Sequence record: MZ234022.1
Direction: 5' to 3' (one strand)
DNA from: Escherichia phage vB_EcoP-101120B1-2
Length of the DNA: 39,845 nucleotides
Each line of letters opens with the position of its first letter. Positions within the stretch are counted from its first letter, which is position 1. Under the pieces are notes generated by a model that was not told the DNA's origin, searched no databases, and was given only the letters and a program-made list of their open reading frames with translations. Of the stretch, positions 10,649 through 18,485 are shown in pieces. The translations under genes were made by a program, and so were the position numbers.

Positions 10649-10678
10649 TTGACAAGATGTACCGACTTAAAGTAGTAT
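10649..10678 (+). promoter_or_regulatory. Host sigma70-type early promoter (T7 A2/A3-like): -35 TTGACA, 18-bp spacer, -10 TAGTAT
   Basis: GTAGTTGACAAGATGTACCGACTTAAAGTAGTATGTACCACATC resembles T7 A3 TTGACAACATGAAG...TACGATGTACCACATG. Confidence 0.45.
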
Positions 10679-10861: not shown

Positions 10862-11116
10862 ATGGACACTATGAAACACTTAAGCACAATCACTAATCGC
10901 AATGAAGTATTCGTGAACACTAAAGGTTATGCGTGGATTCAGCTTAAAGAGATGAGAGGAGCGCGTCACCGTGTGGTAGTTCGCAAGGTATCAAGCAAGC
11001 CGTTCAGCAACTACAGCGTAGATACTATGCGTATAGACAACGAGACTTACCTGATAGACTCGCAGATAACCGTGCGTCCTACAGCGGGCATCTCAGCTCC
11101 TTATTTCGCTAACTGA
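10862..11116 (+). CDS. Hypothetical early protein (84 aa), first gene of the early operon, upstream of the Ocr homolog
   Basis: ORF bracketed by two copies of the conserved early hairpin; MDTMKHLSTITNRNEVFVNTKGYAWIQLKEMRGARHRVVVRKV...; basic. No T7 counterpart recognised. Confidence 0.55.
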   Translation: MDTMKHLSTITNRNEVFVNTKGYAWIQLKEMRGARHRVVVRKVSSKPFSNYSVDTMRIDNETYLIDSQITVRPTAGISAPYFAN

Positions 11117-11118
11117 GA

Positions 11119-11171
11119 GTGATTAACTACAGGTCGTTAGACTGATAGCGGCCTGACTGATAGTCACTAAC
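11119..11171 (+). promoter_or_regulatory. Conserved hairpin, early family copy 2 (shorter variant) immediately upstream of the Ocr homolog
   Basis: GAGTGATTAACTACAGG...GGCCTGACTGATAGTCACTAAC shares both flanking arms with copies 1 and 3. Confidence 0.45.
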
Positions 11172-11199
11172 ACATAATTAACTTTGAGAGGATATAACT

Positions 11200-11706
11200 A
11201 TGGAACGTAATGCTAACGCATACTATGAGCTGCTGGCTGCAACCGTTGAGGCATTTATCGAGCGTATTCAGTACGACCACCTGACTCAAGATGATGACTA
11301 CAGCGATGCGCTGCATGAGGTCGTAGACGGTCAGGTTCCACACTATTACCACGAGATTTTTACGGTGATGGCTGCTGATGGTATAGACCACGAGTTCGAA
11401 GACTCTGGGCTGATGCCTGAAACCAAGGACGTAACGCGTATCCTACAAGCTCGCATCTATGAGGCGCTTTATAACGATGTGTCTAATAGCTTGGATGTAG
11501 TCTGGTTTGAGGATGAAGAGGCAGAAGAAGAGGATGAATATTGGGTAGTTGACGCTAAAACAGGCGCAATAATTGTGCAAGCTGTAGCTCTTGAGGTCGC
11601 TACTGCATGTACCAAGGTTAACTATGCGGCAGGTCGCCACCTGAAGGTGGAAGACATCAATGATAACGTAGTGTTCGACCCTGCGGCTGAGGACTGCGAG
11701 CGATGA
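11200..11706 (+). CDS. ocr: Ocr-like DNA mimic (gp0.3 homolog, anti-restriction) with an extra C-terminal region of about 45 aa
   Basis: [43 protein letters not shown] matches T7 Ocr [43 protein letters not shown]. The acidic run [10 protein letters not shown] corresponds to the T7 C-terminus but the ORF continues (168 vs 117 aa). Confidence 0.85.
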
Positions 11707-11873
11707 TAACTTACGGTTTATGCCAGCACCACGTCACCAACGCCCGACTTATGGTCAAGACCGGGCGGTTAACCCATGATGAGACTATGCGTCTCCTGAA
11801 GGTGGTCTACAAGCGCCGCAAGCGCATACACGACAGTTTGCACGCTGAGGATAACCAACAATGCTCCAGATAA
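11703..11873 (+). CDS. Small hypothetical early protein (56 aa), basic
   Basis: ATGA overlap with the Ocr stop; [56 protein letters not shown]; weak RBS. Confidence 0.3.
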
Positions 11874-11938
11874 CTTATAGCAGCGAACAAGCGTTCTACG
11901 ACGGGTGCTACGAGATGATGAAGCGCGATACTTGCTAG

Positions 11939-12002
11939 CGACAGTGATTAACTACAGGGTCTTTGAGTCTACATCTGAAGGCCCTGACTGATAGCCACTA
12001 AC
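11939..12002 (+). promoter_or_regulatory. Conserved 64-nt hairpin, early family copy 3 (candidate RNase III site)
   Basis: 63 of 64 nt identical to 10791..10854; immediately upstream of ORF 12019. Confidence 0.55.
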
Positions 12003-12018
12003 AACTGAGAGGACAGAT

Positions 12019-12246
12019 ATGAACACAATCACTGGTGCCATAGCCAAAGGTTTTCGAGCAATTTTCAGTGAATCGCAAGAAGTATGCACCAATCATAAAT
12101 TCGTACTTTCTTGCGTAGTAGGGGACGAGTTTGACGGATTCGATAAACTGGTGGTTTGCGACCATTGTGGACAAGAGGCTATCCAACGCTCAAACGGTAA
12201 ATTTGAATTAATAGACGATAGCCTTACAGAAGGAGACGGCGAGTAA
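12019..12246 (+). CDS. Hypothetical early protein (75 aa) with Cys-containing motif (C..C...CDHCG), possible zinc ribbon
   Basis: SD GAGAGGA upstream of ATG; MNTITGAIAKGF...VCTNHKFVLSCVVGDEFDGFDKLVVCDHCGQEAIQ; acidic C-terminus. Confidence 0.55.
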   Translation: MNTITGAIAKGFRAIFSESQEVCTNHKFVLSCVVGDEFDGFDKLVVCDHCGQEAIQRSNGKFELIDDSLTEGDGE

Positions 12247-12378
12247 CCTAGATAAACAGGAGAGAACCAAATCGTAGCTTGACCATAACGCTGACAGGTG
12301 GATACTGAGTGATAGACGAGAGGCCGTCGAATGATAGGTGGCCTCAAAGATTATCACTTGAATTAATAGGAGTTAACT

Positions 12379-12468
12379 ATGAGTGTGGGATATTGGGTCT
12401 GCCTAGCGCCAGTTATCTGGATGATAGGCTATGGGTTATACGACTGTATTAAACGGAAATCACTATGA
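12379..12468 (+). CDS. Tiny hydrophobic peptide (29 aa), putative
   Basis: SD AGGAG 6 nt upstream of ATG; MSVGYWVCLAPVIWMIGYGLYDCIKRKSL; ATGA overlap with the next ORF. Confidence 0.25.
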   Translation: MSVGYWVCLAPVIWMIGYGLYDCIKRKSL

Positions 12469-12662
12469 GTCTTGCACTATTGATAGCCATAGGCTATGGA
12501 CTTATCGCATACGTGCTGGTGAGAGACATCAACAAGGCACGTAAAGTCTATAAATTCAACTATGTACGTATGGTCCGCTGGACTGTACGTCAACCTAACG
12601 GACGATTCCTGCGCAATTTAGCGAACGTCTGGGATATAGCAACTCTTGGGAGCAAACTGTAA
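12465..12662 (+). CDS. Hypothetical early membrane protein (65 aa), N-terminal TM segment
   Basis: MSLALLIAIGYGLIAYVLV then basic tail; translationally coupled to its neighbours. Confidence 0.45.
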   Translation: MSLALLIAIGYGLIAYVLVRDINKARKVYKFNYVRMVRWTVRQPNGRFLRNLANVWDIATLGSKL

Positions 12663-12988
12663 TGAACAAGTCATACGGGATTAATCTGGTACACTCTATG
12701 GACGCAGAAATGAACATGTTAAGCCTACTGGCTACCGGGTATCGTCACGGAACGTCAAGTCACACCGCACGTCAACAGCAGGAGAGGGACCGTGTACTAC
12801 AGGCGCGACTCAGGGCAGAGGGCCATAAGTCCGAACTGATGTGTCTGGCGTATGGCGGACGACCGATCACTGACGATGGTAAACTTCTGGTATCAGGCTG
12901 GAAGGCGATAGACCAACGGTCAACCATCAAGCACACGACTCACGGTGACTTCAGCCGTCTCCACGCTAACCCACTGATATGCAAGTGA
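12662..12988 (+). CDS. Hypothetical early protein (108 aa), last gene before the RNA polymerase gene
   Basis: ORF at the position T7 uses for gene 0.7, but far too short to be the 359-aa kinase and no kinase motifs seen. Confidence 0.5.
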   Translation: MNKSYGINLVHSMDAEMNMLSLLATGYRHGTSSHTARQQQERDRVLQARLRAEGHKSELMCLAYGGRPITDDGKLLVSGWKAIDQRSTIKHTTHGDFSRLHANPLICK

Positions 12989-12993
12989 TTATG

Positions 12994-13016
12994 ACTTAAC
13001 TATCACTATAGGACTC
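12994..13016 (+). promoter_or_regulatory. Phage RNA polymerase promoter immediately upstream of the RNA polymerase gene, CTTAACTATCACTATAGGACTC
   Basis: Core ACTATCACTATAGG; +1 about 75 nt upstream of the gene 1 ATG; leader contains direct repeats AAGTGAAAGAC x2. Confidence 0.7.
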
Positions 13017-13085: not shown

Positions 13086-15767
13086 ATGAGCGTCATCTCT
13101 ATTGACAAACACGACTTCTCTGATGTGTCGAACGCCATTGAGCCGTTTAACCTGCTGGCTGACCACTACGGGCAAGACCTTGCAGTCAAACAGCTTCAGC
13201 TTGAGCATGAGGCCTACACTGAAGGTGAGCGACGTTTCATCAAGAACCTTGAGCGTCAGACCGAGCGAGGGGAACTGGCAGACAATCAGGTCGCCAAGCC
13301 TTTGATGCAGACTCTGGTTCCTAAGATTGCGCAAGCCGTCAAGGAGTGGCACGAAGGTCCAGACGGGAAGCTGTCAACCTCACGTCCGAGCGTAGCGTTC
13401 ACCATGTTAAGCACTGAAGAGAAGGCCGTCAAGGACCGCTCTCTTCGCATCTCCTGCGAGTCTGCTGCGGTTATCATACTGAAGGTCATCCTCTCCAAGC
13501 TGGTCAAGCCTGAAGGTATACCGATTACACCGATGGCCTCCGCGATAGGTCGCACACTTGAGGATGAAATCCGATTCGGTCGCATTCGTGACAAGGAGAA
13601 GGAGCACTTCAAGAAGGCGATAGCTGATAACCTGAACAAGAGAGCCGGGGCATCATACAAGAAAGCCTACATGCAAGCGGTCGAGACATCCATGCTGGAG
13701 CAAGGCCAACTAGAAGATGCGTGGGGAACTTGGAGTCCGACCGAGGCTGTCCACGTTGGAATCAAGATGCTGGAGATTGTCATACAGTCAACACAACTGG
13801 TCAAGCTTAAGCGTTACGGTGCTGGCAATGCAGCGGCTGACGTTGAGATGGTCCACCTGTCAGACTTCTGGGTCAAGAAGATGGCACAACGAGGATTCAG
13901 CCTTGCGGGTATCGCCCCAGTCTACCAGCCTTGCGTCGTTCCGCCTAAGCCGTGGACTGGTGTCGTAGGCGGTGGGTATTGGGCCAAAGGTCGAAGACCA
14001 TTGCCACTGATTCGCTTAGGGTCTAAGTCTGCGGTAGCACGTTATGAAGACGTATACATGCCTGAAGTCTATGAAGCTGTGAATATCATCCAGAATACAC
14101 CTTGGAAAGTGAACAAGAAGGTATTGGACGTGGTGAACAGGGTCGAGAAGCTGAACAACACGCCTATTAATGACATCCCTCAGATGGAACCGCTGAAGCC
14201 TGAGGACTATGCTGGTGAAACCGAGGAGGAACTCAAGGCATGGAAGAAGGCTGCTGCTGGTATCTATCGCCGCGAGAAGGCCAGACAGTCACGCAGATTA
14301 TCACTGAGCTTTATCGTTAACCAAGCAAACAAGTTCTCTCAGTTCAAGGCCATCTGGTTCCCGTACAACATGGATTGGCGAGGTCGTGTCTACGCTGTCC
14401 CGATGTTCAACCCTCAGGGTAACGACATGCAGAAGGGGCTCCTGACTCTGGCAGTCGGCAAGCCTATTGGTGCTGACGGTTTCAAATGGCTGAAGGTCCA
14501 CGGTGCAAACTGTGCGGGTGTCGATAAAGTCACCTTCGATGAGCGCATCAAGTGGGTGGAAGACAACCACGAAAACATCATGGCTGCTGCTAAGGCACCG
14601 ATGGATAGCATTGAGTGGTGGGGCAAGTTAGACTCTCCGTTCTGCTTCCTAGCGTTCTGCTTCGAGTATGCTGGCGTAATGCACCACGGCTTGTCTTACT
14701 CCTGCTCGCTGCCGATAGCGTTCGATGGGTCCTGCTCTGGGATTCAGCACTTCAGCGCTATGCTTCGCGACCACATCGGTGGACATGCAGTAAACCTGAC
14801 GCCATCCGGTAAGGTCCAAGACATCTACCGCATCGTGTCTGACCGCATTGAGGAGGAGCTTAAAGTCCTACTGGTTAACGGTACGGACAACGAGATGGTA
14901 ACTCACGAGGACAAGAAAACTGGTGAGATTACCGAGCGTCTCAAGCTGGGGACACGAGAGCTTGCCCGTCAGTGGCTGACCTACGGTATGTCACGAAAGG
15001 TCACTAAGCGTTCGGTCATGACTCTGGCCTACGGGTCGAAAGAGTACGGCTTCGCAGACCAAGTTTACGAGGACATCGTGATGCCAGCGATTGACTCAGG
15101 GTCTGGCGCTATGTTCACTGAACCAAGCCAAGCAGCTCGCTTCATGGCTAAGATGATTTGGGAAGCTGTGAGTGTGACCGTAGTTGCTGCGGTTGACGCG
15201 ATGAAATGGCTTCAGGGTGCTGCCAAGCTGCTTGCTGCTGAAGTGAAGGACAAGAAGACTGGAGAAATCCTGAAGCCTTGTCTTCCGGTACACTGGGTCA
15301 CACCTGATGGTTTCCCTGTCTGGCAGGAATACCGAAAGAAGGACACCACTCGTCTGAACCTGATGTTCTTAGGGTCATTCAACCTTCAGCCTACCGTCAA
15401 CAAAGGCACGAAGAAAGAGCTGGACAAGCACAAGCAGGAGTCAGGCATTAGCCCGAACTTCGTCCACTCACAAGATGGTAGCCACCTCCGCAAGACTGTA
15501 GTCCACACGCACCGCAAATATGGCGTGATGTCATTCGCAGTGATTCACGATAGCTTCGGGACCATCCCGGCTGACGCTGAGTATCTGTTCCGTGGAGTCC
15601 GTGAGACGATGGTCGAGACCTACCGCGACAACGATGTGCTGCTTGACTTCTACGAGCAGTTTGAATACCAGCTTCACGAGAGCCAGAGAGACAAGTTGCC
15701 TGAGCTTCCTAAGAAAGGTAAACTGAATATCGAAGACATCTTGTCTTCAGACTTTGCATTCGCTTAA
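13086..15767 (+). CDS. Single-subunit DNA-dependent RNA polymerase (gp1 homolog)
   Basis: 893 aa, collinear with T7 RNAP (883 aa): RFGRIRD, FQPCVVPPKPWTG, AIWFPYNMDWRGRVYAV, FNPQGNDM, DGSCSGIQHFSAMLRD, VTKRSVMTLAYGS, FVHSQDGSHLR, IHDSFGT, C-terminal DFAFA. Confidence 0.98.
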   Translation: MSVISIDKHDFSDVSNAIEPFNLLADHYGQDLAVKQLQLEHEAYTEGERRFIKNLERQTERGELADNQVAKPLMQTLVPKIAQAVKEWHEGPDGKLSTSRPSVAFTMLSTEEKAVKDRSLRISCESAAVIILKVILSKLVKPEGIPITPMASAIGRTLEDEIRFGRIRDKEKEHFKKAIADNLNKRAGASYKKAYMQAVETSMLEQGQLEDAWGTWSPTEAVHVGIKMLEIVIQSTQLVKLKRYGAGNAAADVEMVHLSDFWVKKMAQRGFSLAGIAPVYQPCVVPPKPWTGVVGGGYWAKGRRPLPLIRLGSKSAVARYEDVYMPEVYEAVNIIQNTPWKVNKKVLDVVNRVEKLNNTPINDIPQMEPLKPEDYAGETEEELKAWKKAAAGIYRREKARQSRRLSLSFIVNQANKFSQFKAIWFPYNMDWRGRVYAVPMFNPQGNDMQKGLLTLAVGKPIGADGFKWLKVHGANCAGVDKVTFDERIKWVEDNHENIMAAAKAPMDSIEWWGKLDSPFCFLAFCFEYAGVMHHGLSYSCSLPIAFDGSCSGIQHFSAMLRDHIGGHAVNLTPSGKVQDIYRIVSDRIEEELKVLLVNGTDNEMVTHEDKKTGEITERLKLGTRELARQWLTYGMSRKVTKRSVMTLAYGSKEYGFADQVYEDIVMPAIDSGSGAMFTEPSQAARFMAKMIWEAVSVTVVAAVDAMKWLQGAAKLLAAEVKDKKTGEILKPCLPVHWVTPDGFPVWQEYRKKDTTRLNLMFLGSFNLQPTVNKGTKKELDKHKQESGISPNFVHSQDGSHLRKTVVHTHRKYGVMSFAVIHDSFGTIPADAEYLFRGVRETMVETYRDNDVLLDFYEQFEYQLHESQRDKLPELPKKGKLNIEDILSSDFAFA

Positions 15768-15782
15768 CAACAGGAGAAGTAT

Positions 15783-16013
15783 ATGTCAATGAAACTTGTA
15801 GCACACAACAGGGTATTCAACGATGGGTCGGGACGTTGCCATGTAGAGCTGACTTATAAGGATTTAATCATTCTCCGAGACAGATTACAGTCGGGTGTGA
15901 CTGGGTGGATTCAACCTAACGAGTACAACCTTATAGCTTCGATTGATGAAGTTCTTAACGCGTGGATGGAAGACGAGCGCATTCAGTATCCGTCATTCCC
16001 TCTAATTAGATAA
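15783..16013 (+). CDS. Hypothetical protein (76 aa) between the RNAP gene and gene 1.1
   Basis: SD AGGAGA upstream of ATG; no T7 counterpart recognised at this position. Confidence 0.5.
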   Translation: MSMKLVAHNRVFNDGSGRCHVELTYKDLIILRDRLQSGVTGWIQPNEYNLIASIDEVLNAWMEDERIQYPSFPLIR

Positions 16014-16023
16014 GGAGAGAGTT

Positions 16024-16239
16024 ATGAAATTTGCACACAAGCATACTGGCGTTAATGGTGGGACTCAAATCGTGACCGTAACAGAACACAACGGCAAGGG
16101 TCTGGTGAAGACCACGGTCACCCCTACCGAGATGTCCAAGCAGCTTAACATCCCGTTCAAGACTCTTGTATATCTGGTCGAGTCCAGCCACGAGAAGTAC
16201 CTGAAGGACGCAGTGTCCAAGCTGGAGCAGGCCAAATGA
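16024..16239 (+). CDS. Hypothetical protein (71 aa) between the RNAP gene and gene 1.1
   Basis: SD AAGGAGA upstream of ATG; MKFAHKHTGVNGGTQIVTVTEHNGKGLVKTTVTPTEMSKQ... Confidence 0.5.
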   Translation: MKFAHKHTGVNGGTQIVTVTEHNGKGLVKTTVTPTEMSKQLNIPFKTLVYLVESSHEKYLKDAVSKLEQAK

Positions 16240-16314
16240 CAGACATACAGTTACTGGCCCTGTGGCTGGGAGCACTCGCAGTATTCACTTTAATCCAACG
16301 CAGAAGAGGTTAAC

Positions 16315-16337
16315 CCTAAACTATCACTATAGGCTTA
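16315..16337 (+). promoter_or_regulatory. Phage RNA polymerase promoter (phi1.1 position), CTAAACTATCACTATAGGCTTAG
   Basis: Core motif, intergenic. Confidence 0.75.
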
Positions 16338-16379
16338 GACTCAAGGTCATGACTCAAAGTCGTGGCCTTCATGATTAAC
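16336..16379 (+). promoter_or_regulatory. Conserved RNA hairpin, late family copy 2 (candidate RNase III site, R1.1 position)
   Basis: TAGACTCAAGGTCAT...GTGGCCTTCATGATTAAC; same stem as copies at 6693 and 23562. Confidence 0.45.
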
Positions 16380-16410
16380 CCTAAATAAACACTACTGGAG
16401 ATTTAACCGT

Positions 16411-16590
16411 ATGTATCAGAACACTATCAACTTCGAGCGCATCCGTGAACGTCAGCAGACTGAAGGTTACATCCCTAAGGGCCGCAAGCTGAACAAGACT
16501 AAACGTGGCGGTGGTATCAAAGGCGCTTTCAGAAACGCTGAAGGTAAAGACTCTCTGGTCAACCAAGAGAAATACTTCGTAGGAGCATAA
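16411..16590 (+). CDS. gp1.1 homolog (59 aa, basic)
   Basis: MYQNTINFERIRERQQTEGYIPKGRKLNKTKRGGGIK...; GRKLNKTKR matches T7 gp1.1. Below the track threshold. Confidence 0.6.
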   Translation: MYQNTINFERIRERQQTEGYIPKGRKLNKTKRGGGIKGAFRNAEGKDSLVNQEKYFVGA

Positions 16591-16594
16591 CTCT

Positions 16595-16858
16595 ATGGGC
16601 CGACTTTATAGTGGCAACCTCAACGCTTTCAGAGCAGCGTGTAACAGGCTTTATCAGTTAGACTTCTGCGTGATACAGCAGGACTGGTACGACGCGCATC
16701 TTCGGAAAGAGTGCATGAGACTTCAAGTCGAGGACCGAGCTGGTAACATCTTCGCGCTTGAGACCTTCGCACACTACGATGAAGACGTGCTGTATAATAC
16801 CGCAACCGACTACCTCAACGGTCTCGCTGACCATCTCGACACATGGAGCAAAGAATAA
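16595..16858 (+). CDS. gp1.2 homolog (inhibitor of host dGTP triphosphohydrolase Dgt)
   Basis: MGRLYSGNLNAFRAACNRLYQLDFCVIQQDWYDAHLRKECMRLQVEDRAGN... matches T7 gp1.2 MGRLYSGNLAAFKAATNKLFQLDLAVIYDDWYDAYTRKDCIRLRIEDRSGN. Confidence 0.9.
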   Translation: MGRLYSGNLNAFRAACNRLYQLDFCVIQQDWYDAHLRKECMRLQVEDRAGNIFALETFAHYDEDVLYNTATDYLNGLADHLDTWSKE

Positions 16859-17946
16859 TGACAACTATCAAAACTAACCCTCACCGCGCTGTAGATTACT
16901 CTGAGTCTGGAATTAAGAAGGCACTGGAAGCAGCCGGGTCTCTGGAAGCTGAAGTGAAGTACGATGGTGTGCGCCTGAACCTCCTGGTCCTGCGTGAAGG
17001 TGAGACCTACTGGCTTAGCCGCGAGTCGAAACCTCTACCAGCCTTGGAGTGGATGAACTCTGAGTTAGGTAATGCGTGGACCCAAGCTGACTGGCGATGG
17101 TTCCTGCGTCAATCCGGCTACGAAGGTGTGGGCATGATGATTGATGGCGAGGTCATGGTCAAAGGTGTAGACTTCAACACCTCCTCAGGTCTCATCCGAA
17201 CGAAGTGGCTCAAGCCTAACAACGAGGAGTTCGCTGAATACTATTCGCCGGCGACTGGTGGAAAGAAGCTCCCGTTCTGGGGATCCCGGTCACGACTTCA
17301 GGTTGTGGTATATGGCGTTGTCGATATGACAACCATAGCAGACCCGAAAGCAGAAGGTCCTATCCATAGCGTAACCCGCCTGAAGGCTGAAGCTATCGTC
17401 CCTCTCCTCCAGAAATACTTCCCGGAAATCGACTGGGTTCTGTCTGAGTCACACACGGTCTATGACCTTGAGTCGCTCAACTCCCTGTACGAACAGAAGC
17501 GTCTGGAAGGACATGAGGGTCTGGTAGTCAAGGACCCACTGGGTAAGTACAAGCGTGGCAAGAAGTCTGGCATGTGGAAAATGAAGCCTGAGGAGACCAT
17601 CGACGGGACCGTGTGTGGCCTCGTGTGGGGGACTCCTGGTAAGGCTAACGAAGGTAAGGTCATCGGCTTTGAGGTTCTACTGGAGGATGGCATGGTGGTC
17701 AACGCCTGTGGTCTGACTGAAGAACAGAAGGACGAGTTTACGGCTAAGGTCAAGGAGGACACGCTTGCTGCGGTTGGCATCTTTGCGCCGTACGGCATTG
17801 GTGGTAACGAACCTTGCTTCGATAACCCATACGAAGGCTGGCAGTGTGAAGTCCTCTTCATGGAGAGGTTCCCTGATGGCTCCCTTCGTCACCCCAGCTT
17901 CAAGTGCTGGCGTGGAACCGAAGACAACCCAACGGTGAAGTCATGA
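16858..17946 (+). CDS. ATP-dependent DNA ligase (gp1.3 homolog)
   Basis: Adenylation motif EVKYDGVR (KxDG); N-terminus MTTIKTNP matches T7 ligase MMNIKTNP. Start taken at the TAATG overlap with gp1.2 rather than the longer track ORF. Confidence 0.9.
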   Translation: MTTIKTNPHRAVDYSESGIKKALEAAGSLEAEVKYDGVRLNLLVLREGETYWLSRESKPLPALEWMNSELGNAWTQADWRWFLRQSGYEGVGMMIDGEVMVKGVDFNTSSGLIRTKWLKPNNEEFAEYYSPATGGKKLPFWGSRSRLQVVVYGVVDMTTIADPKAEGPIHSVTRLKAEAIVPLLQKYFPEIDWVLSESHTVYDLESLNSLYEQKRLEGHEGLVVKDPLGKYKRGKKSGMWKMKPEETIDGTVCGLVWGTPGKANEGKVIGFEVLLEDGMVVNACGLTEEQKDEFTAKVKEDTLAAVGIFAPYGIGGNEPCFDNPYEGWQCEVLFMERFPDGSLRHPSFKCWRGTEDNPTVKS

Positions 17947-18122
17947 GTACACAACTTTATATCAACATAGCAAGTGGTCAACTCTACGCTGTGGTAAATG
18001 GCGAGCTGTGGTATCGTAAACTCAAGAAGTGGGCCAAGTCCTACTACGATGAAGAGACAATATCAACCATGAGTAATCGCTACCGTAAGGCTGCTAAGGT
18101 GAACAACTTTAAGATGCGTTAA
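17943..18122 (+). CDS. Small hypothetical protein (59 aa) after the ligase
   Basis: ATGA overlap with the ligase stop; MSTQLYINIASGQLYAVVNGELWYRKLKKWAKSYYDEE... Confidence 0.4.
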   Translation: MSTQLYINIASGQLYAVVNGELWYRKLKKWAKSYYDEETISTMSNRYRKAAKVNNFKMR

Positions 18123-18181
18123 CGTCAACCCAGTGGTCTTAGGACTGCTGGGTTTCTTTGCTTCTGGGCCACCAGCTAGAC

Positions 18182-18204
18182 CCTAAGCTATCACTATAGG
18201 ACAA
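18182..18204 (+). promoter_or_regulatory. Phage RNA polymerase promoter (phi1.5/1.6 position), CCTAAGCTATCACTATAGGACAA
   Basis: Core CTATCACTATAGG with one upstream substitution. Confidence 0.7.
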
Positions 18205-18230
18205 CCCTAACCGACCAAAGGAGAAACCTT

Positions 18231-18485
18231 ATGTCTAAAAACTTAATGTTCAACCGATCTACTCGAAGCTTCCACCTGTCGCATAGCCCATTCAGCTTCC
18301 ATAAAGCTAATCAACCATTACCCCGCTTTGGTAAGACAGTGGCTCTGTCTCCAGCAGTTCATGCGCTAGTCACCCGCAAGTCTATGCTGAAGGCTATGGA
18401 TAAAGAACAAGTTGATGTGCCTGTGGTCATTACAAAATGGCCTCGCATTAAGCTGGCACTTCTGGTAATTAAGGAGGCGCTCTGA
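18231..18485 (+). CDS. Hypothetical protein (84 aa), gp1.6-like by position
   Basis: SD AAAGGAGA upstream of ATG; assignment by position only. Confidence 0.5.
   Translation: MSKNLMFNRSTRSFHLSHSPFSFHKANQPLPRFGKTVALSPAVHALVTRKSMLKAMDKEQVDVPVVITKWPRIKLALLVIKEAL

Follow-up and report, generated by a model that had tools for sequence, protein, structure and literature searches.

Two small open reading frames (ORFs), here called ORF1 and ORF2, and a 25-codon micropeptide gene lie between the RNA polymerase gene (gene 1) and gene 1.1 of Escherichia phage vB_EcoP-101120B1-2 (MZ234022.1; "the window" below is this whole stretch of 39,845 nucleotides), and their conservation marks all three, far beyond chance, as genuine protein-coding genes. 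With a probability of roughly 0.55, we favor the reading that they are co-transcribed early genes, that their products are probable host-takeover or counter-defense binders, that ORF1 is an optional cassette, and that the origin-like architecture upstream of gene 1.1 has been retained.

The window belongs to the genus Kayfunavirus (K1F-like phages within the Studiervirinae, the subfamily of T7). Over the 721 bases around the ORFs it is 99.9% identical to several published Escherichia phages, among them vB_EcoP-22664UKE3-2 and LM33_P1, and 214 phage records match this stretch overall. Many genome records already list both ORFs as hypothetical proteins, hence their novelty is low, and the observation made in an earlier reading of the sequence alone (the sequence-only reading) is correct but ordinary. 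That reading had also presented the two ORFs as a departure from T7, where, according to the textbook description, only promoters and the primary origin lie between genes 1 and 1.1 (Dunn & Studier 1983). T7, however, is the wrong baseline: gene 1.05 occupies this place in the T3-like phages T3, phiYeO3-12, and phiSG-JL2 (PMC4925675, Table 4; PMC4283147, promoter table), a Klebsiella Przondovirus has a promoter and a 186-aa gene there, and other kayfunaviruses also carry genes there. Thus, a filled slot is the norm in the subfamily, and the interval is a mosaic accessory hotspot across the Studiervirinae rather than a peculiarity of this phage. Two points deserve mention: the universal, mostly unannotated micropeptide, apparently coupled to ORF2, and the fast evolution and cassette behavior of ORF1.

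ORF1: homologs, cassette junctions, and evolutionary rate

As claimed in the sequence-only reading, both ORFs have good ribosome-binding sites of the AGGAG type, located 6 nt ahead of each ATG (AGGAG at 15772-15776 for ORF1; AAGGAG at 16012-16017, overlapping the ORF1 stop codon, for ORF2). ORF1 aligns end to end with the hidden Markov model (HMM) of PHROG 28104 (E = 2.1e-56, residues 1-76 on profile positions 1-76 of 76) and is the same gene as the members of this family in EcoDS1 (AS9_0007) and LM33_P1 ("Phage protein"). Its translation is 100% identical in 13 records, LM33_P1 among them, and those listed are either annotated as a coding sequence (CDS) or lie in unannotated records. Altogether, ORF1 is present in 39 phage records (at least 84% identity), almost all of them from E. 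coli phages, and is missing from K1F. It forms two subfamilies with a mutual identity of only 47%, both of exactly 76 codons, and 27 residues are invariant across them, including K4-L5-x-A7-H8, D14-G15-x-G17, G41-W42, I51-A52-S53, and the C-terminal Y69-P70-x-x-P73-x-I75.

An exhaustive HMM search with the ORF1 alignment among 1.84 billion representative proteins yielded only five genuine clusters. The remote clusters P0134 and P0135 are ~40% identical to ORF1 over the first 60 residues (E ~5e-9), both adjoin the 3' end of a T7-type polymerase gene, and the reverse search from them matched only the same 39 records. Two further candidates, P0136 and P0137, were rejected as homologs, since their scores are inflated by repeats, each stretch contributing at most 10.5 bits.

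The match to P0136, a 1299-aa repeat protein with HTH_36, LexA, and MarR-type Pfam matches elsewhere in its sequence, could be taken to mean that ORF1 is a helix-turn-helix (HTH) DNA-binding or sigma-mimicking regulator of the sigma region 4 or LuxR-like kind, the more so as the segment LTYKDLIILRDRLQSG...EYNLIAS, read directly, resembles the signature "LT.rE..vL.l...G....eIA". We consider this highly improbable. The E-value owes its size to a five- to six-fold repetition of the weak match, ORF1 has no HTH match in Pfam at E <=0.1 and is acidic, and the spacer between the two halves of the motif is ~7 residues too long. Moreover, the AlphaFold2 model, a small N-terminal beta hairpin plus a two-helix hairpin (predicted local distance difference test score, pLDDT, of 67.6, with termini that are modeled at low confidence yet conserved), has one continuous helix at residues 45-68 and not a turn followed by a recognition helix.

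The sequence-only reading regarded both ORFs as accessory. This holds for ORF1, a truly accessory gene found in 39 of about 219 records, but not for ORF2, which together with the micropeptide is core (219 records, 36 of 36 loci). In phages without ORF1 the junction has the form TAAcaggagagagttATG-ORF2, read as "...TAA caggagagagtt ATG(ORF2)", and in phages with ORF1 it is TAAcaacaggagaagtatATG-ORF1-TAAggagagagttATG-ORF2, or, in full, "...TAA caacaggagaagtat ATG(ORF1)...TAA ggagagagtt ATG(ORF2)". The AGGAGA ribosome-binding-site motif thus borders the cassette on both sides, which is consistent with ORF1 being gained and lost by short-homology recombination between these Shine-Dalgarno-like sequences. 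The presence of ORF1, the C-terminal type of ORF2 (66 or 71 aa), and a 156-164-aa insert considered below occur in several combinations, hence the description of the interval as a mosaic hotspot. In the loci examined, ORF1 was never seen together with the 66-aa ORF2; among the sampled loci it co-occurs only with the 71-aa form or, in locus L034, with a 67-aa form, a pairing that may reflect either linkage or a functional relationship.

In order to compare evolutionary rates, minimal changes per codon were counted among 10 ORF1-bearing genomes, and Fisher's test was applied to each gene against ORF1. For ORF1 we observe 20 synonymous and 32 nonsynonymous changes, compared with 70 and 6 for the last 200 codons of the polymerase gene (p = 7e-11), 34 and 9 for gene 1.1 (p = 8e-5), and 27 and 17 for ORF2 (p = 0.04). 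The pairwise nonsynonymous-to-synonymous ratios (pN/pS) follow the same order: 0.39 for ORF1, 0.17 for ORF2, 0.08 for gene 1.1, and 0.02 for the polymerase C-terminus; that of the 25-codon ORF is 0.48, higher than that of ORF1. Residue 74 of ORF1 (16002..16004) takes seven amino acids (I, K, L, M, R, S, T) in these 10 closely related genomes and is part of the C-terminal tail YP-x-[FY]-P-x-I-[RK], which is conserved apart from it. ORF1 is constrained, being well below neutrality and untruncated in the extracted loci, yet evolves much faster than its neighbors.

Such a rate fits either an arms race or relaxed constraint. In the latter case, ORF1 would be a decaying or selfish passenger ("moron") without a current function, as might be suggested by its absence from ~80% of the genus including K1F, by a ratio of nonsynonymous to synonymous changes of 1.6 and a pN/pS that are the highest of the larger ORFs compared, and by the closest ORF1 pairs, in which nonsynonymous changes equal or outnumber synonymous ones (0/6, 1/7, 3/10). 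We regard this as unlikely, given that pN/pS is still well below 1, that the invariant residues are kept across subfamilies sharing less than half of their sequence, that the ~40%-identical homologs hold the same position in distant T7-like phages, and that the Shine-Dalgarno sequence is strong. The 76-codon frame is also intact in 13 out of 13 full-length loci, although the match to vB_Eco_1RS, one of the 39 records, is broken in two.

ORF2 and the micropeptide gene

ORF2 matches the PHROG 8082 HMM over the full profile (E = 8.6e-41, residues 1-66 on positions 1-66 of 66), and the members of this family, such as K1F CKV1F_gp06 (YP_338095), CR44b gp1.05, and Dev2 "gp1.1", are the same gene. 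By tblastn it is found in 219 phage records at identities down to 42%, in phages of Escherichia, Salmonella, Enterobacter, Citrobacter, Shigella, Cronobacter, and other hosts; this is about equal to the ~212 records with a Kayfunavirus-type gene 1.1 (at least 90% identity). At the protein level, it is found in 155 clusters. The gene always lies directly after gene 1 or, where ORF1 is present, after ORF1. Its translation is 98.6% identical in records including LM33_P1, its variable sites are distributed over the three codon positions as 13/8/45, and pN/pS is 0.14-0.30. Thus, ORF2 with the micropeptide gene is a genus-wide core module of Kayfunavirus.

The N-terminal 48 residues of ORF2 are highly conserved, and they are followed by one of two alternative C-terminal helices, giving the 71-aa form ("...ESSHEKYLKDAVSKLEQAK") or the 66-aa form ("...EQAHEQALKEAATK", e.g., in loci L005 and L019). 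The AlphaFold2 model (pLDDT 70.8) consists of a meander of three strands, a short helix, and, at the C-terminus, a helix of 26 residues. The motif TPTEMSKQLNIPFKTLVYLV was considered as a sign of an HTH protein and rejected, as neither Pfam nor the model, with a helix at residues 36-40 followed directly by the 26-residue helix, supports it.

ORF2 is labeled gp1.1 in EcoDS1 and Dev2, and gp1.05 in CR44b (PMC4925675). It has no Pfam match to T7 gp1.1 at E <=0.1, whereas the 59-aa ORF at 16411..16590 hits PF08200 with 43 bits (cutoff 21). The comparison with T3 gp1.05 (PF25755) gives a similar outcome: neither ORF1 nor ORF2 has a Pfam match, and hhalign against EcoDS1 gp1.05, assigned to the PF25755 family by position and by similarity to the L034 gene carrying PF25755, gives a probability of 0.2% for each. 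T3 gene 1.05 shares the slot of ORF1 and ORF2, but is unrelated in sequence, is twice as long, and is absent from the window; its copy in the T3-like phage AP5 is served by a promoter of its own, phi1.05 (PMC4283147), while ORF1 and ORF2 have none. According to these comparisons, the labels on ORF2 are positional names that do not reflect homology, and the annotation should be corrected, ORF2 being neither gp1.1 nor gp1.05. No paralogy was detected by hhalign between ORF1 and ORF2 (probability 0.2%), and tests of ORF2 against gp1.2, and of both ORFs against the gp1.05-like protein, were also negative.

The sequence-only reading had placed a tiny hydrophobic ORF, a promoter, and a hairpin after ORF2, and all three are found there, in this order. 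The start codon of the micropeptide gene overlaps the ORF2 stop codon (ATGA here; ATGA or GTGA across loci), so that the two are proposed to be translationally coupled. The gene is intact in 36 out of 36 related loci and is seen in 175 phage records by tblastn. Its 21 peptide variants have 25 aa throughout, or 26 aa in the distant locus L034. The hydrophobic core is always kept, and the C-terminal QRRRG is kept in 17 of the 21 variants, the other four having single substitutions; both persist in L034 despite nucleotide changes that include the Arg codons. The 17-residue core has a grand average of hydropathy of 2.28 and is flanked by the basic C-terminus, features of a putative single-pass membrane peptide. 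Searches with the micropeptide in Pfam, NCBIfam, PADLOC, and PDB-sequence profiles gave nothing significant. In its size, hydrophobic core, and basic C-terminus it is similar to TisB and ShoB, small hydrophobic membrane peptides acting as type I toxins, but it has neither sequence similarity to them nor an evident antisense-RNA partner, and it is coupled, as proposed, to ORF2.

This 25-aa ORF, which the conservation marks as real, is unannotated in most GenBank records, an exception being GA2A (gp10). Several records (e.g., 22664UKE3-2_024 and AREXTEPB_0034) annotate instead a 38-aa ORF with a GTG start, corresponding to 16262..16378 here. The latter is not conserved: it spans the phage promoter and the hairpin, and hence could not be preserved in loci with a gp1.05-like insertion. 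Such an insertion, a 156-164-aa gene between the micropeptide stop codon and the phi1.1 promoter, is present in 15 out of 33 non-redundant loci (~40%), including L001 (3119..3589), L007 (1780..2253), L012, L014, L017-L025, and L034 (4560..5054). The inserted gene carries Pfam Phage_T3_1_05 in L034 and is apparently truncated to 70 aa in L008, and its ribosome-binding site is provided by the last part of the micropeptide ORF (AGAGGTTAA).

Transcription context and possible functions

Table 1. Features of the region considered in this study; all positions are those of the window.
Feature	Position	Strand	Basis
Candidate host sigma-70 early promoter, TTGACA-18-TAGTAT	10649..10678	+	Consensus scan, 10/12 matches
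Gene 1, T7-type single-subunit RNA polymerase, 893 aa	13086..15767	+	ORF list; same annotation in homologous records; upstream anchor of the slot
ORF1, 76 aa, pI 5.5, PHROG 28104, optional cassette	15783..16013	+	PHROG match
ORF2, 71 aa, pI 9.5, PHROG 8082, genus-core gene	16024..16239	+	PHROG match
Hydrophobic micropeptide gene, 25 aa, MTDIQLLALWLGALAVFTLIQRRRG	16236..16313	+	Intact in all loci examined
Phage RNA polymerase promoter, phi1.1 equivalent, predicted +1 at 16332	16314..16336	+	Consensus match
Leader hairpin, 50 nt, candidate RNase III (R1.1-like) site	16332..16381	+	Fold and conservation
Most AT-rich 60 nt of the region, between hairpin and gene 1.1	16370..16429	+	Composition profile, GC 0.33
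Gene 1.1 homolog, 59 aa	16411..16590	+	Pfam PF08200 Phage_1_1, E = 6e-11, above cutoff; 605 phage records
Gene 1.2, dGTPase inhibitor family (Pfam T7-like_gp12)	16595..16858	+	Pfam PF10922, E = 9e-35
Ligase gene	16843..17946		Gene-order table
Candidate early terminator (TE equivalent), 12-bp stem and T-rich tail	18127..18154	+	Terminator scan; downstream of the ligase gene

A consensus scan finds no phage promoter between 12993 and 16314, and scans of 15600-16700 give neither a sigma-70-like site on the plus strand nor an intrinsic terminator. With neither a promoter nor a terminator between them and gene 1, ORF1 and ORF2 are probably early genes. The candidate promoter at 10649 and the candidate terminator at 18127 bracket the genes for Ocr, several small ORFs of unknown function, gene 1, ORF1, ORF2, the micropeptide, genes 1.1 and 1.2, and ligase. 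The promoter is a consensus match only, the number of such matches in the region not exceeding that in shuffled sequence; as to the terminator, EcoDS1 annotates TE at the same relative place. By analogy with the class I genes of T7, ORF1, ORF2, and the micropeptide gene are most likely early genes transcribed by the host RNA polymerase within one unit with gene 1. The phage polymerase probably transcribes them as well: a copy of the phage promoter at 12993..13012 (three mismatches, CACTATAGG core intact), ~75 nt upstream of the polymerase gene, suggests that the enzyme transcribes its own gene and the three small genes after it. In T7, no promoter is known in this position, immediately ahead of gene 1.

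No recognizable motif, no specific fold, and no match in Pfam, NCBIfam, PADLOC, or PDB sequences was found for ORF1 or ORF2, in agreement with the sequence-only reading, which recognized no motifs in them. Their homologs are hypothetical proteins without assigned function, and none with a known mundane role, the case named there as a refutation, was found; the PHROG 28104 and 8082 entries, from which the two ORFs do not differ, also carry no function. Anti-defense or defense-associated homology was not found in PADLOC, NCBIfam, Pfam, or PDB sequences, and the peptide strings do not occur in the supplementary files of the accessory-gene screen. The two ORFs are not unusual in this respect, since at least seven other small ORFs of the early regions 10862..12988 and 17943..18485 fall in PHROG families of unknown function; these have 84, 56, 75, 65, and 108 aa and, after the ligase gene, 59 and 84 aa, the 59-aa ORF (17943..18122) lying between the ligase gene and the TE-like terminator.

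T7 encodes a set of small (~50-120 aa), non-enzymatic early proteins, Ocr/gp0.3, gp0.4, gp1.2, gp2, and gp5.7, each of which works by binding a single host protein; some hosts can be infected without them, and their distribution among related phages is patchy. Homologs of two such takeover and counter-defense proteins, Ocr and gp1.2, are encoded in the window in the same early unit as ORF1 and ORF2. The products of ORF1, ORF2, and the micropeptide gene, too small for catalysis and lacking recognizable motifs, would most likely be stoichiometric binders of host (or phage) macromolecules, acting in the first minutes of infection. ORF2 and the putative membrane micropeptide would form a translationally coupled module throughout Kayfunavirus, and ORF1 would be the likeliest of the three to be in an arms race with factors specific to E. 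coli. The host-takeover or anti-defense role envisaged in the sequence-only reading is thereby a plausible guess, especially for ORF1, where it leans on the patchy distribution and the fast evolution of the gene.

Several considerations weigh against this reading. No function for either ORF was found in the literature searched (gene functions, K1F omics, and anti-defense screens), and the promoter and terminator scans provide consensus matches only. That ORF1 is restricted to E. coli phages may result from phylogenetic linkage rather than from a host-specific function. Its raised nonsynonymous rate could mean relaxed constraint instead of an arms race, the numbers of changes are low, and the minimal-change counts may be too high as a result of recombination between phages.

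A more specific candidate role comes from K1F. Infection by this phage mislocalizes FtsZ, its genome lacks homologs of both T7 gp0.4 and lambda kil, and, according to the authors, the responsible peptide is unknown (PMC9372555). Hence any conserved small early protein of K1F is a candidate, including ORF2 and the micropeptide, either or both of which could be a cell-division (FtsZ-ring) inhibitor with the role of T7 gp0.4. K1F itself carries both genes, both are small and, like gp0.4, belong to the early unit, and none of the early ORFs of the window matches the gp0.4 family of Pfam. This evidence is purely circumstantial, however: the window has six or more further early ORFs without an assigned function that qualify just as well, and locus L034 has a Pfam Phage_T7_GP04 gene in addition to ORF2 and the micropeptide gene, which argues against functional redundancy. 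We therefore hold this assignment to be very unlikely.

Somewhat broader, and still rather unlikely in our view, is the joint proposal that ORF1 is a fast-evolving inhibitor of E. coli-specific immunity or of another host factor specific to E. coli, and that ORF2 with the coupled peptide is a genus-wide two-part effector. Under it, the conserved and poorly modeled termini of ORF1, including the YP-x-[FY]-P-x-I-[RK] tail and its single hypervariable position, would be docking motifs, and ORF2 with the peptide might provide the unidentified FtsZ inhibitor of K1F or some other membrane-directed takeover function.

Kayfunaviruses such as K1F, LM33_P1, CLB_P1, and their relatives are under development as therapeutic phages against capsulated and O-antigen-bearing pathogenic E. 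coli, and their early genes decide which strains can be taken over. If ORF1 does neutralize a specific E. coli defense, this would explain a part of the strain-to-strain differences in host range within the genus and would add a new family of small inhibitors; if ORF2 and the micropeptide are a membrane-linked takeover module, a role would be obtained for a genus-core gene pair, one half of which is mostly unannotated.

Promoter, leader hairpin, and neighboring genes

The positions 16314..16333 are a perfect copy of the 20-nt phage promoter consensus, which occurs 10 times in the window at <=3 mismatches, vs. zero times in shuffled sequences, and the promoter upstream of gene 1.1 is annotated as such in ASO2B, EcoDS1, and CR44b. 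The hairpin begins at the predicted transcript start and has a minimum free energy of -20.8 kcal/mol (z = -2.35). In a comparison of 31 distinct upstream sequences, almost no variation is seen in the promoter, in the 50 nucleotides transcribed first, or in the subsequent "ATTAACCCTAA", and the sequence nearer the start codon of gene 1.1 varies. The hairpin has 14 consensus pairs, one of them with a compensatory change and two more varying on one side, and one A-C mismatch (10 sequences). Pairing is kept through variant upper stems, and since the hairpin contains G-U pairs in addition to internal loops, it would act at the RNA level. An irregular hairpin of ~50-60 nt with internal loops in the gene 1.1 leader is what characterizes R1.1, and by this analogy we consider it a candidate equivalent of the T7 R1.1 RNase III site; no Rfam family matches it.

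The T7 primary origin region contains two promoters, phi1.1A and phi1.1B, and the RNase III site R1.1. Here, too, a phage promoter lies directly upstream of gene 1.1; a structured leader and a candidate AT-rich stretch come after it, an arrangement conserved in the genus. The differences are that one promoter is present instead of two, and that the added genes put the unit ~0.55 kb of coding sequence further from gene 1. An apparent second promoter at 16375 ("ATTAACCCTAA...") was rejected: only "ATTAACCC" is conserved, the CACTATAGG core is lacking, and the segment is the 3' arm of the lower stem of the hairpin, pairing with the 5' end of the transcript. The GC content of the AT-rich stretch is the lowest in the region, compared with ~0.45-0.55 nearby, with the reservation that the stretch is short and in part a ribosome-binding-site leader. 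As in T7, a promoter, here one with a perfect consensus, lies between genes 1 and 1.1, and the promoter with the AT-rich stretch is the best candidate for a T7-like primary origin. The question of where the origin lies, raised in the sequence-only reading because of the two ORFs, is thus largely moot, since the promoter, the leader hairpin, and the AT-rich stretch remain directly upstream of gene 1.1; on the T7 analogy, the origin-like architecture would follow the three small genes and would not have been displaced by them.

The proximity of ORF2 to this unit, always 0.1-0.7 kb from the conserved promoter and hairpin, permits another interpretation, that ORF2 is a small basic nucleic-acid-binding protein serving the phage's own DNA or RNA transactions at the promoter, the origin, or the RNase III-type leader, where, instead of acting on the host, it might help to start replication or to process early mRNA. 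Its pI of 9.5 and net charge of +4, genus-wide presence, and conserved N-terminal part are consistent with such a role. At the same time, ORF2 has no HTH, AP2, or dsRBD Pfam match at E <=0.1 and no PDB sequence match; T7, the T3-like phages, and Przondovirus handle the same promoter and origin region without an ORF2 homolog; and coupling to a membrane peptide would be unexpected for a DNA or RNA factor. This interpretation seems to us doubtful.

On the opposite strand, an 89-aa ORF at 16006..16275 was dismissed, being antisense to the conserved ORF2 in a phage family whose genes are all on one strand. Elsewhere in the early region, the homolog of Ocr, a DNA-mimic anti-restriction protein (11200..11706), has 168 aa, and the Pfam ocr domain spans only residues 8-95, leaving an unannotated C-terminal extension of ~70 residues.

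Some of the records used for comparison deserve a comment. PV615262 (L037, "Acinetobacter phage vB_Aba_01KA") is a Kayfunavirus ~92% identical to the window across the region, with the polymerase gene split in three CDS, and MT350292 (H87, "Enterococcus phage EFA-1") is likewise a Kayfunavirus, in which ORF2 shows 94% amino-acid identity; neither the host labels nor the quality of these sequences seems reliable. In the K1F reference NC_007456 (L004, 1887..2064), where genes 1.1 and 1.2 are unannotated, the gene 1.1 homolog is matched by tblastn in two overlapping pieces and its ORF ends after 17 codons, which is either a frameshift or a sequencing error.

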